IMG/VR virus record: IMGVR_UViG_2869976549_000001
Direction: 5' to 3' (one strand)
Length of the DNA stretch: 39,073 bases
From: a virus
Lineage: Duplodnaviria; Heunggongvirae; Uroviricota; Caudoviricetes
Shown: in pieces, positions 13,611 to 16,363 of the stretch
Position numbering within the stretch: position 1 is the first letter of the stretch
Layout: every line of letters begins with the position of its first letter
Program-made: the position numbers and the translations under genes
The notes under the pieces: model-generated
What the model saw: only the letters and a program-made list of their open reading frames with translations
Told to the model about the DNA's origin: nothing
Database searches by the model: none

Positions 13611-14056
13611 TCTGTCTCCCTTGTATATGGGTTAACCAGATAACCACGGGGAGCAGGTACCGGCATCCACGTTACAGACGGTCCCGGCAAAAGTGCCTGA
13701 CCTGACCCCTATTAGCGGTTACCAGCGCCCCACCAGACCCGGTGACATCACCCCCCGGATCATGGACGACTGGGGGCAGTAATCATGCCGGGTCTGGCTG
13801 GCTAACACCCCATTATAAGGGGTACGAATAAAGTAACGGGGCGGGATATGTATCAGATGGAAAAAATATCAACAGGCATTGCCTACGGCACCTCCGCCGG
13901 CAGTGCCGGCTACTGGTTTTTGCAGTGGTTGGATCAGGTCAGTCCATCACAGTGGGCTGCGATTGGTGTGCTGGGAAGTCTGCTTCTGGGGCTTCTGACT
14001 TATCTGACGAATCTGTATTTCAAAATAAGAGAAGATAAGCGTAAGTGGATTTGCCC

Positions 14057-14962
14057 CTATATTTCCAGACATCTGTTATCACTTAACCCATTACAAGCCC
14101 GCTGCCGCAGATATTCCCGTGGCGAGCGATAACCCAGCGCACTATGCGGATGCCATTCGTTATAATGCTCGAACGCCTCTGCAAGGTTCTTTGCTGCCGT
14201 TAACCCGTCTGGTTTGGGCATGATACTGATGTAGTCACGCTTTATCGTTTTCACGAAGCTCTCTGCTATTCCGTTACTCTCCGGACTCCGCACCGCCGTG
14301 TTCTTCGGTTCAAGTCCCAACATCCGGGCGAACTGGCGTGTTTCATTAGCCCGGTAGCATGAACCATTATCCGTCAGCCACTCCACTGGAGACGACGGAA
14401 GATCGTTGCCGAAGCGGCGTTCCACCGCTCCCAGCATGACGTCCTGTACTGTTTCACTGTTGAAGCCGCCGGTAGTCACCGCCCAGTGCAGTGCCTCACG
14501 ATCACAGCAGTCCAGCGCGAACGTGACACGCAGTCTCTCTCCGTTATCACAGCAGAACTCGAACCCGTCAGAGCACCATCGCTGATTGCTTTCTTTCACG
14601 GCCACTCTGCCTGTATGTGCCCGTTTCGATGGCGGTACAGCAGGTTTTCGCTCAAGCAACAGCGCATTCTGGCGCATGATCCGGTAAACACGTTTGGCAT
14701 TGATCGCAGGCATACCATCAAGTTCTGCCTGTCTGCGAAGCAGCGCCCATACCCGACGATAACCATACGTGGGCAGCTCTCCGATAACATGGTGTATACG
14801 GAGAAGCACATCCGTATCATCAGTGTGACGACTGCGGCGGCCATCCATCCAGTCATCGGTTCGTCTGAGAATGACGTGCAACTGCGCACGCGACCCCCGG
14901 AGACAACGGCTGACTAAGCTTACTCCCCATCCCCGGGCAATAAGGGCGCGTGCGCTATCCAC
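14057..14962 (-). CDS. insD: IS2 transposase InsD (OrfB)
   Basis: Identical to 5582..6487. Confidence 0.9.
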
Positions 14963-15285
14963 TTTTTTGCCCGTCCATATTCAACGGCTTCTTTGAGGAG
15001 TTCATTTTCCATCGTTTTCTTGCCGAGCAGGCGCTGGAGTTCTTTAATCTGCTTCATGGCGGCAGCAAGTTCAGAGGCAGGAACAACCTGTTCTCCGGCG
15101 GCGACAGCAGTAAGACTTCCTTCCTGGTATTGCTTACGCCAGAGAAATAACTGGCTGGCTGCTACACCATGTTGCCGGGCAACGAGGGAGACCGTCATCC
15201 CCGGTTCAAAGCTCTGCTGAACAATTGCGATCTTTTCCTGTGTGGTACGCCGTCTGCGTTTCTCCGGCCCTAAGACATCAATCAT
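14920..15285 (-). CDS. insC: IS2 InsC (OrfA)
   Basis: Identical to 6445..6810. Confidence 0.85.
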
Positions 15286-15398
15286 CTGTACTCCAATGAC
15301 TAGTCTAAAAACTAGTATTAAGACTATCACTTATTTAAGTGATACTGGTTGTCTGGAGATTCAGGGGGCCAGTCTAGTAAGGCTGCGAGAGGTGAATA

Positions 15399-15896
15399 AT
15401 GTCGCCATCATTACGCAAGGCTGTTGCAGTTGCTATTGGTGGCGGGGCTGTTGCTATAGCATCTGTGTTAATCACTGGCCCAGGTGGTAACGATGGTCTG
15501 GAAGGTGTCAGCTACATACTATACAAAGATATCATTGGTGTATGGACTGTATGTCACGGACACACCGGAAAAGACATCATGCCTGGTAAAACGTATACCG
15601 AAGCAGAATGCAAAGCTCTCCTGAATAAAGACCTTGCCACTGTCGCCAGACAAATTAACCCGTACATCAAAGTCGATATACCGGAAACAACGCGCGGCGC
15701 TCTTTACTCGTTCGTTTACAACGTGGGCGCTGGCAATTTCAGAACATCGACGCTTCTTCGCAAAATAAACCAGGGCTATATCAAAGGCGCATGTGACCAG
15801 CTATGTCGCTGGACATATGCTGGCGGTAAGCAATGGAAAGGGCTGATGACCCGTCGTGAGATTGAGCGTGAAGTCTGTTTGTGGGGGCAGCAATGA
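15399..15896 (+). CDS. SAR endolysin (lysozyme, R21/RrrD-like)
   Basis: 165 aa; N-terminal Gly/Ala-rich signal-anchor-release domain ([20 protein letters not shown]) followed by a lysozyme domain; start overlaps the holin stop (TAATG). Confidence 0.85.
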
Positions 15897-16363
15897 GCAG
15901 AGTCACCGCGATTATCTCCGCTCTGGTTATCTGCATCATCGTCCGCCTGTCATGGGCTGTTAATCATTACCGTGATAACGCCATTACCTACAAAGAGCAG
16001 CGCGACAAAAACGCAAGAGAACTGAAGCTGGCGAACGCAACCATTACTGACATGCAGCAGCGCCAGCGTGATGCTGATGCACTCGATGCTAAATACACGA
16101 AGGAGTTAGCTGATGCGAAAGCTGAAAATGATGCTCTTCGGCGCAAGCTTGATAATGGTGGTCGGGTGCTCGTCAAAGGAAAATGCCCTGTGCCATCCTC
16201 AGCCGAAACCTCCAGCGCCTCCGGCATGGGCAATGATGCCACCGTCGAACTCTCTCCAGTTGCTGGACGAAACGTTCTCGGTATCCGGGACGGAATCATC
16301 AGCGACCAGACAGCATTGAGAATGCTTCAGGAGTACATCAGGATCCAATGCCTTGGGGGGTAG
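15893..16363 (+). CDS. i-spanin Rz
   Basis: [17 protein letters not shown]... N-terminal TM helix, coiled-coil periplasmic domain; start overlaps the endolysin stop (ATGA). Confidence 0.8.
16113..16319 (+). CDS. o-spanin Rz1 (lipoprotein), embedded in the +1 frame of Rz
   Basis: [21 protein letters not shown] lipobox (VVGC), Pro-rich mature part; entirely inside Rz. Confidence 0.75.

Follow-up and report, generated by a model that had tools for sequence, protein, structure and literature searches.

The lysis cassette in the window, the whole 39,073-nt stretch of DNA analysed, is very likely a transcriptionally orphaned module in ordinary IS-driven decay rather than one clean holin knock-out. 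The window is Shigella sonnei DNA. The cassette is, in all likelihood, the S-R-Rz/Rz1 lysis module of a defective lambdoid, phage-21-like S. sonnei prophage. In an ancestor of the examined S. sonnei strains, IS2 inserted into S at its 3′ end, and IS911 took the place of the upstream tRNA region. An ISEc20-like element later settled 10 nt ahead of the S start in most strains, that of the window among them. In the strain of the window, an IS600-bounded rearrangement took Q and the late promoter away from the cassette. R and Rz gained four non-synonymous and no synonymous changes, all at otherwise invariant positions. Because a terminator-like hairpin precedes S, no promoter-like site leads into S or R, and no Q lies in cis, the module would not be expressed at a meaningful level. 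Without such expression, neither cell lysis nor endolysin leakage would arise from it. The open frames would persist only because neutral mutation has lacked the time to close them. S. sonnei is a young clone, so open R and Rz frames are expected even without selection. Features are listed in Table 1.

Table 1. Features of the lysis region, in window coordinates
Feature	Coordinates	Strand	Basis
IS911 (IS3 family)	10589..11835	-	NCBIfam transpos_IS3, Pfam rve, synteny with loci L002 (RMDEC465) and L008
Remnant of non-coding region preceding S in intact prophages	11836..12378	+	Alignment with RMDEC465
ISEc20-like IS110-family element, 1459 bp	12379..13837	-	Boundaries from empty sites of 53G and RMDEC465
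S′, codons 1-66 of 71-codon S21-type class II holin (pinholin)	13848..14045	+	Pfam, alignments
IS2, complete, 1331 bp	14046..15376	-	Boundaries, target duplication, annotated E. coli matches
Final five holin codons (AARGE) and TAA stop	15382..15399	+	GCT GCG AGA GGT GAA TAA after IS2
R, SAR endolysin (GH24 lysozyme, R21/RrrD type), 165 aa	15399..15896	+	PF00959, 1.1e-43
Rz (i-spanin), 156 aa	15893..16363	+	PF03245, 9.9e-30, 103.8 bits
Rz1 (o-spanin lipoprotein), 68 aa	16113..16319	+	PF06085, 3.8e-21, 75 bits
DedA/VTT-family membrane protein gene	16452..16964	-	PF09335; 'DedA family protein' in RMDEC465 and O121

Source of the DNA and spread of the IS2 junction

The exact R protein and the exact S′::IS2 fusion ORF are present in S. 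sonnei genomes including 53G (HE616528), of phylogenetic group II, and FDAARGOS_90 (CP014099); the identities of both strains were taken from PMC5447701. The S′::IS2 junction was found in 18 of 18 independently assembled S. sonnei loci examined and in 0 of 5426 complete E. coli genomes. The exact 91-aa fusion protein (M4 start) is indexed in 234 blocks of a public assembly collection. Every independent S. sonnei assembly examined shares this junction and the 91/94-aa fusion ORF, so the junction is not a product of chance or artefact. E. coli 042 was considered as a carrier of the same insertion and rejected: there IS2 sits upstream of essD, which is itself intact (megablast with the raw region, in which IS2 matches were dominant).

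The window contains 11 IS copies. The portal region of the prophage is broken by an IS630-family element, and tail genes adjoining the head genes were not found in the window. An Rfam scan of 9000-17500 returned no match, and NCBIfam gave no informative match for S, Rz or Rz1.

The holin gene and its interruption

The original prediction placed IS2, with a GTAAG duplication, five codons before the holin stop, and this was confirmed. The element follows codon 66 of 71, and its 5-bp target duplication lies at 14041-14045 and 15377-15381. IS2 begins with TGGATTTGCCCC... and ends with ...GGGGGCCAGTCTA; its IRR end adjoins S′ and its IRL end adjoins the leftover S codons and R. OrfA and OrfB are open (Pfam HTH_Tnp_1; rve, rve_3), the A6G frameshift motif is present, and E. 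coli matches to the element are annotated 'IS3-like element IS2 family transposase'. The copy shows 0 differences from a second copy in the window at 5571-6901. It puts 1.3 kb of antisense DNA between S and R/Rz/Rz1.

The holin frame resumes after IS2 with AARGE and a stop, as had been predicted, and this TAA overlaps the R start codon at 15399 (TAATG). The same segment bears the Shine-Dalgarno-like GAGG of R, at a place equivalent to that of a ribosome-binding site annotated in the phage 21 record. In silico excision of IS2 restores a 71-aa holin that matches Pfam PF04971, 'Bacteriophage P21 holin S' (1.5e-35; 121.4 bits, cut-off 26; model positions 1-63 of 64). The alignment to S21-type holins on which the original prediction had staked its reading runs end to end without gaps, with 66/71 residues identical to S21-71. 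Over its 216 nt the reconstructed gene shows 100% identity to the uninterrupted allele of E. coli RMDEC465. Residues 5-45 are the same as in S21, and TMD2 differs by V46L and F49L only. The dual start of this holin type yields a longer antiholin with one more positive charge at its N-terminus; the N-terminal extension here is MYQ (no Lys), as in intact E. coli alleles, versus MKS in S21.

The description of the holin as knocked out was not supported, as only its last five residues are lost. Both start methionines (M1 and M4) are kept, and both transmembrane helices, the SAR-like TMD1 and the pore-lining TMD2, lie upstream of IS2. The S′ frame continues into IS2 up to 14132 and encodes 94 aa, 66 of them native and 28 IS2-encoded. 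The native C-terminus is not kept: the read-through tail takes the place of AARGE after K63 (S21-68 numbering), is not hydrophobic and has a computed net charge of +5. In a series of S21 C-terminal truncations made in one-residue steps, the tail was 'largely dispensable' down to K56, and pores were still formed by S21-56 with foreign ring proteins fused C-terminally (FuN-screen preprint, bioRxiv 10.1101/2021.04.20.440580). Because the S21 tail beyond K56 is dispensable for pore formation, the insertion need not have cost the holin its function. If transcribed, the S′ fusion would probably still form pinholes.

Upstream lesions, transcription and the downstream genes

The holin is also not the only part of the cassette region that was hit, contrary to the original prediction. 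Along its entire length, IS911 shares 99.9% identity with copies annotated 'IS3-like element IS911 family transposase'. In comparison with the intact prophage of E. coli RMDEC465, it stands in place of about 374 bp with tRNA-Arg, tRNA-Thr and tRNA-Gly. The non-coding remnant that follows is 99.6% identical to RMDEC465 (positions 6464-7004 of its locus), carries a terminator-like hairpin and T-run at 12315-12341, before S, and has 9 G as its final stretch. In this G-run sits the ISEc20-like element, which ends 10 nt before the S start codon. It is 98.5% identical to 'IS110-like element ISEc20 family transposase' annotations and has the characters of ISEc20. Its transposase has DEDD_Tnp_IS110 (PF01548) and Transposase_20 (PF02371) domains on two frames; a tandem duplication of 10 bp near 13002-13021 has broken the frame. 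S. sonnei 53G lacks the element, which is present in most strains, including that of the window.

Neither a Q antiterminator gene or Q-like protein nor the late promoter pR′ was found within the 39-kb window. In 53G-type strains, Q and pR′ are still upstream of the cassette, and polymerase modified by Q might in principle traverse both IS elements. In the window's strain, an IS600-bounded rearrangement was shown to have taken the Q gene and late promoter out of the neighbourhood. A crude consensus scan of 11800-16600, which weak, sigma-E-type or read-through transcription could escape, found no plus-strand promoter-like site able to drive S or R. The IS2 genes read away from R. The DLP12 cassette has been reported to respond to RpoE and Hha (PMC7918800). 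A SAR endolysin can free itself slowly without a holin, with later and less synchronous lysis (PMC9239132), and to this extent the proposal of a leaking endolysin agrees with a general principle. Leakage of R needs transcription, yet no promoter-like site faces R; the leak proposed for this cassette is therefore unsupported.

R scores 149 bits against PF00959 and matches PDB 4zpu (RrrD, 2.9e-104) and 3hde (R21, 2.1e-103). The catalytic triad E35-X8-D44-X5-T50 is present. The N-terminal SAR helix is Gly/Ala-rich, and residues 8-27 differ from R21 by A11V and I18V only. P41L, D127Y and R136C are unique among 8 aligned alleles, at sites invariant in the 7 relatives. The distant PDB homologues 9kbs and 9kbq (E ~1e-24) share D127 but are variable at positions 41 and 136.

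Rz resembles the phage 21 and lambda proteins over its N-terminal half; its C-terminal half belongs to a different allele. Through C18R, the N-terminal membrane helix gains an Arg at a position that is Cys in all 7 relatives, and mean helix hydropathy falls from ~2.6 to 2.3; the helix would probably still insert into the membrane. Two further candidate S. sonnei changes in Rz were rejected. W157* is a stop at codon 157 that is common to E. coli O121 and hence normal, and at A60D the D60 is ancestral, with RMDEC465 the odd one out. Rz1 lies entirely within Rz in the +1 frame, and its sequence is identical to that of the RMDEC465 frame. Its lipobox, proposed for checking in the original prediction, reads MVVG|C19; Ser stands at +2 and R/K among the first 7 residues, in agreement with a PROSITE-style pattern.

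The prediction that endolysin and Rz remain intact is right only at the level of open frames, which are found in the window and in most S. sonnei assemblies examined; R carries P41L, D127Y and R136C and Rz carries C18R. Over 969 nt, R and Rz have 4 non-synonymous and 0 synonymous changes, all unique to S. sonnei among the 8 alleles. This points to relaxed constraint; the numbers are compatible with neutrality and too few for proof. The DedA gene is a moron at the usual post-lysis position, outside the cassette, and marks its downstream edge.

Alternative explanations and known systems

Under the original prediction, IS2 specifically abolishes the holin, timed lysis is lost, and an active SAR endolysin, left together with the spanins, leaks through Sec as a slow host liability affecting fitness. 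Open R, Rz and Rz1 frames with a catalytic triad, SAR helix and lipobox fit this account, as does the low-rate spontaneous release of SAR endolysins without a holin (PMC9239132). It is nevertheless quite unlikely, given a holin that retains 66/71 residues and both helices with a dispensable S21 C-tail, the further lesions (ISEc20, IS911, Q/pR′ loss), the unique non-conservative R and Rz changes, one of which replaces a widely conserved Asp and another of which brings an Arg into the membrane helix of Rz, and the failure to find a promoter-like site facing R. Domestication, in which R/Rz/Rz1 or the S′ fusion is kept for low-level host use (cell-wall turnover, vesiculation, colicin or DNA release), is rated very unlikely. 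Most S. sonnei assemblies examined have the downstream frames open, and DLP12 in E. coli K-12 offers a precedent for domestication and stress-regulated expression (PMC7918800). Against this, the non-conservative changes are unique, fall at invariant positions and include none that are synonymous, and Q, pR′ or a recognisable promoter were not found. Open frames, moreover, are expected in a young clone even without selection. Equally little weight is given to a live cassette, in which the S′::IS2 fusion works as a pinholin, R/Rz/Rz1 are read through IS2 or from an unrecognised stress promoter, and the R and Rz changes are attenuating adaptations instead of random decay. If the cassette is live, S. 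sonnei keeps an S21-type module that has been re-wired to work without Q and that influences vesiculation or the release of peptidoglycan, colicin or DNA. As a point against the orphaned-module reading itself, some residual activity is possible, since all three downstream frames are intact, as are the catalytic triad, SAR helix and lipobox. Misplacement of IS2 into the holin by repeat mis-assembly has a negligible chance of being correct: two identical IS2 copies in one window are a situation where mis-joins occur, but the 5-bp target duplication is perfect, excision precisely restores an intact allele, 18 S. sonnei loci assembled independently share the junction, and the fusion ORF recurs in 234 blocks.

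Selected, pathoadaptive inactivation concerns the cause of the lesions and is compatible with IS-driven decay. An active S21-type cassette would free peptidoglycan fragments and over-stimulate innate immunity, so that lesions would be favoured. This is a tentative possibility of rather low probability, though well above the other alternatives. Several independent lesions have struck one 4-kb module, and all R and Rz changes are non-synonymous. Restoration of the DLP12 lysis module in S. flexneri increased release of peptidoglycan fragments and mitigated virulence (Leuzzi et al. 2017, as described in PMC7918800). However, those experiments concern DLP12 in S. flexneri and not the S. sonnei prophage, and 4 non-synonymous versus 0 synonymous changes lie within neutral expectation. 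The lesion density on the cassette is not exceptional, because the window is equally IS-ridden throughout (11 copies in 39 kb).

The favoured reading remains an orphaned module in ordinary decay. When an IS has inserted close to the 3′ terminus of a gene for a small membrane protein, a knock-out should not be assumed automatically. An intact ORF beside a disrupted one is no evidence of function, and upstream IS elements, Q/pR′ loss and lineage-specific substitutions should be checked. Beyond correct annotation the locus matters little, and it could offer a natural test of the published hypothesis of pathoadaptive SRRz/Rz1 silencing in Shigella.

The designation as a phage-21-type cassette holds for S, R and the N-terminal half of Rz, with 91.6% nucleotide identity over S, R and 5′ Rz. 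The gene order S21 (S71/S68 pinholin)-R21-Rz/Rz1 and the overlapping stop/start junctions are the same. S is identical at 66/71 and R at 154/165 residues, the first ~83 Rz residues are nearly identical, and both cassettes have two Met starts, a SAR helix and the E35/D44/T50 triad. The designation fails for the C-terminal half of Rz and all of Rz1, which come from another allele (31 identical residues in Rz1). The window also differs from phage 21 in that S is cut by IS2 after codon 66, Q21/pR′ is not found upstream, R and Rz have four unique substitutions, and the extension is MYQ, not MKS. Intact E. coli prophages (RMDEC465, FDAARGOS_943/944, O121 201805972) have the order class II holin-RrrD-lysis protein-DedA and are 99.2-99.5% identical in nucleotide sequence from 10 nt upstream of S through DedA, with S (once IS2 is excised) and Rz1 identical to those of the window. 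Unlike the window, they are without IS2 and ISEc20 and retain, upstream, four tRNA genes and a Q-like DUF1133 gene. Their R has P41, D127 and R136, and their Rz has C18.

The essD-ybcS(rrrD)-rzpD/rzoD module of DLP12 in E. coli K-12 is likewise an S21-type cassette in a defective prophage, and R matches RrrD. The DLP12 module is intact and expressed, and a role in modulating vesiculation has been reported for it, whereas that of the window is IS-disrupted, lies in a different prophage and is probably silent. Phage Mu illustrates that lysis by a SAR endolysin and a spanin without a holin is biologically possible (PMC9239132), which is the notion underlying the leaking endolysin of the original prediction. 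Mu, however, depends on a dedicated releasin (gp25) and on active transcription, whereas in the window no sign of transcription was found and the holin is probably not destroyed as a protein.

Decay and loss of SRRz/Rz1 cassettes in Shigella have been described and proposed to be pathoadaptive (Leuzzi et al. 2017, PMID 28389211, as described in PMC7918800). Expansion of IS1, IS2, IS4, IS600 and IS911 together with gene loss is documented in Shigella, and ISEc20 and IS630 are also listed for S. sonnei 53G (Hawkey et al. 2020, PMC7373316); lysis-gene terms were not found in the supplementary files of that study. The window shares with this expansion the IS families, the organism and the outcome, namely gene interruption and IS-bounded rearrangement, and nothing essential is different; the locus is one particular insertion site. 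Decay of such cassettes in Shigella is already published, and the locus adds a further case of an S. sonnei prophage decaying through IS elements.

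The interrupted holin

The cassette comprises genes for an S21-type pinholin (S), a SAR endolysin (R) and the spanins Rz and Rz1. Its anatomy in the original prediction was borne out base for base by reading of 13500–16800, the ORF list and scripted excision. IS2 is flanked by GTAAG on both sides (14041–14045, 15377–15381), AARGE-stop resumes 3′ of it, and the TAA overlaps the endolysin ATG at 15399. The element encodes OrfA (HTH_Tnp_1) and OrfB (rve/rve_3), contains an A6G frameshift motif, has E. coli matches annotated as IS2, and is identical to a second copy at 5571–6901.

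Features of the window
Feature	Coordinates	Strand	Details
IS911	10589–11835		Takes the place of ~374 bp that contain three tRNA genes; synteny
ISEc20-like IS110-family element	12379–13837		1,459 bp; in G-run preceding S; alignments
S codons 1–66	13848–14045	+	ORF list, in silico excision
IS2	14046–15376	transposase genes −	1,331 bp; ends TGGATTTGCCCC... and ...GGGGGCCAGTCTA
R	15399–15896	+	PF00959
Rz	15893–16363	+	PF03245
Rz1	16113–16319		Inside Rz, +1 frame; PF06085
IS630-family element	19453–20605		343-aa transposase 19554–20585; interrupts terminase/portal region
Truncated integrase	32233–33045	−	IpaH region
Tail-fibre fragments	34245–36072	+	IpaH region
IpaH-type effector	36252–38015	−	IpaH region

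In silico removal of IS2 yields a 71-aa protein matching Pfam "Bacteriophage P21 holin S" (1.5e-35), and the end-to-end alignment with S21-71 on which the prediction depended was obtained without gaps (66/71 identities). The reconstructed gene equals, at 216/216 nt, its uninterrupted counterpart in E. coli RMDEC465, an intact allele of the same prophage cassette. These results confirm IS2 in the holin. The holin IS2 differs from the same-site copy of Shigella sonnei 53G (L008 4648–5978) at ~8 positions (99.4% identity), which could be due to gene conversion homogenising IS2 copies or to the sequence quality of the older 53G assembly. The S allele, like intact E. coli alleles (RMDEC465), starts MYQMEK (13848–13859). 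The Lys found in S21 (MKSMDK) is missing from its 3-residue antiholin extension, so the longer product of this allele family may not act as an antiholin.

That the holin is knocked out was not borne out. IS2 follows K66 of the 71-aa form (K63 of S21-68), and both membrane helices are kept. Shortening of the S21-68 C-terminus one residue per step had an effect only at K56, and pores were still made when S21-56 was fused C-terminally to Lsm ring proteins (bioRxiv 10.1101/2021.04.20.440580). The IS2-encoded tail is 28 residues long and non-hydrophobic (maximum 15-residue Kyte-Doolittle mean 0.63), with net charge +5. The fusion of this tail to S′ (the part of S before IS2), if expressed, would probably still make pinholes, perhaps with altered timing. 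A more certain effect of IS2 is that 1.3 kb of antisense IS now separates S from R/Rz/Rz1; the GAGG ribosome-binding site of R itself lies downstream of the element and is retained.

Lesions beyond IS2

R, Rz and Rz1, predicted to be intact, do have open frames. Relative to RMDEC465, R and Rz each have three differences, all non-synonymous, and S has none. Seven alleles were compared (two near-identical and three more distant E. coli alleles, phage Ayreon and phage 21). Four changes at otherwise invariant positions are confined to S. sonnei: three in R (P41L, D127Y, R136C) and one, C18R, in the membrane helix of Rz. D127 is also kept in PDB lysozymes 9kbs and 9kbq (match only E ~1e-24), where positions 41 and 136 vary. 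In Rz, the allele alignment rejected D60 and the stop at codon 157 as derived S. sonnei changes. The R catalytic triad E35/D44/T50 and SAR helix are unchanged. The Rz1 sequence does not differ from the E. coli allele, and it passed the lipobox pattern check (Cys19, Ser at +2, basic N-terminus). The tally of four non-synonymous and no synonymous changes is compatible with relaxed constraint but too small to separate neutral drift from selection.

Nor was the holin alone hit. Synteny with 53G and the intact RMDEC465 prophage, where a Q-like DUF1133 gene, four tRNA genes and ~680 bp precede S-R-Rz-DedA, revealed three further events. The IS911 replacement is common to the window and 53G. The ISEc20-like element, whose right end is 10 nt before the S ATG, is not in 53G or in the 53G-arranged loci L018 and L020, and is in most other S. 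sonnei loci. Around it (12370–13841) are 9 G on the left and GGGG on the right; the empty 53G site is a run of 10 G. G-runs also flank an independent ISEc20 copy in E. coli 2-331 (L012, about 2490–3990), in the e14-remnant region near iraM, and the two copies thus suggest a poly-G target preference of this RNA-guided IS110-family element. A 10-bp tandem duplication, CCCAGCGAAG, at ~13002–13021 frameshifts the transposase into two ORFs (12999–13610 and 12404–13078). It is common to S. sonnei FDAARGOS_90 (L011), and loci L004, L005 and L009 have an intact 398-aa transposase; the duplication is a lineage marker, and the window's copy is itself dead.

The third event is loss, in this strain, of the DUF1367/YbcO/Q/pR′ segment, which spans the late antiterminator gene and late promoter. 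Window 1201–2458 matches 53G inverted, adjoining IS600. In the comparison of window 1–2458 with L008 1–2652, the hok/Rem/DUF1367 segment is inverted relative to 53G and abuts IS600 (1–1200), and the DUF1367 C-terminus, YbcO, Q-like DUF1133 gene and pR′ region are missing beside it. The 53G Q-like protein and Q-S intergenic DNA had no match anywhere in the 39 kb. The pattern resembles an inversion or deletion mediated by IS600, with the late genes uncoupled from their antiterminator as a result. At 12315–12341, just upstream of the ISEc20-like element and S, is a terminator-like hairpin with a T-run, and no plus-strand sigma-70-like site was found in 11800–16600. The holin-alone reading is too simple both ways: it overstates the damage to the holin and understates how far the rest of the cassette is compromised.

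The prophage is grossly defective. The window holds 11 IS copies, the portal region is split by the IS630-family element, and the head genes run directly into IS1 and chromosomal genes. The IS630-family insertion is strain- or sublineage-specific because it is missing from 8/8 other S. sonnei loci compared. Beside tail-fibre fragments and a truncated integrase lies an IpaH-type effector gene (LRR_TTSS and NEL E3 ligase domains), and this group appears to be what is left of a second, ipaH-carrying prophage. IS1-flanked chromosomal genes (25451–32098; lactonase, LysR-family regulator, aconitase-family protein, pectinesterase-like protein) separate it from the first prophage.

Distribution of the insertion

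The exact endolysin protein is encoded, among many chromosomes, in HE616528.1 (S. sonnei 53G, phylogenetic group II) and CP014099.2 (S. sonnei FDAARGOS_90; PMC5447701). IS2 is at the same place in 8/8 loci retrieved with this protein and 10/10 retrieved with the 91-aa S′::IS2 fusion ORF. A 240-bp probe of the left IS2 junction was covered in 0/5,426 E. coli genomes. All S. sonnei assemblies examined, group II 53G among them, therefore carry the insertion, and none was found outside S. sonnei in the searched data. In the collection, 234 blocks contain the fusion ORF, mostly on contigs <2 kb, as would be expected from short-read assemblies broken at flanking IS copies. The perfect target duplication and 18 independent assemblies rule out mis-assembly of IS2 into the holin.

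Probable decay and relation to known systems

On the best-supported account, the lysis module is a transcriptionally orphaned remnant under IS-driven and mutational decay. IS expansion and gene loss are described in Shigella, these IS families in S. sonnei 53G included (PMC7373316), and SRRz/Rz1 cassette decay in Shigella is already reported in the summary of Leuzzi et al. 2017 in PMC7918800. A published line of work treats an active S21-type SRRz/Rz1 module as an antivirulence trait in Shigella; according to the same summary, S. flexneri with a restored DLP12 module (from the E. coli K-12 cryptic prophage) had increased peptidoglycan-fragment release and mitigated virulence. Selection for silencing is therefore a live rival as the cause of lesion build-up, and it would not exclude decay. 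The R/Rz substitutions and the missing promoter and Q make domesticated use, of the kind suggested for DLP12 in K-12 (PMC7918800), less likely. The predicted leak of SAR endolysin stands in part: slow self-release without holin is possible (PMC9239132), but it requires transcription, which is without support here.

S, R and the N-terminal half of Rz bear out the original likening to phage 21, at 91.6% nt identity over 950 nt. The Rz C-terminal half and Rz1 are instead another, common allele, with 99 identities over 158 alignment columns for Rz and 31 identities for Rz1. For the configuration as a whole, 571 E. coli genomes match over at least 80% of the query. All components have close, characterised relatives (S21/R21/Rz-Rz1, RrrD, IS2, IS911, ISEc20), and the IS2-in-holin finding is real but ordinary.
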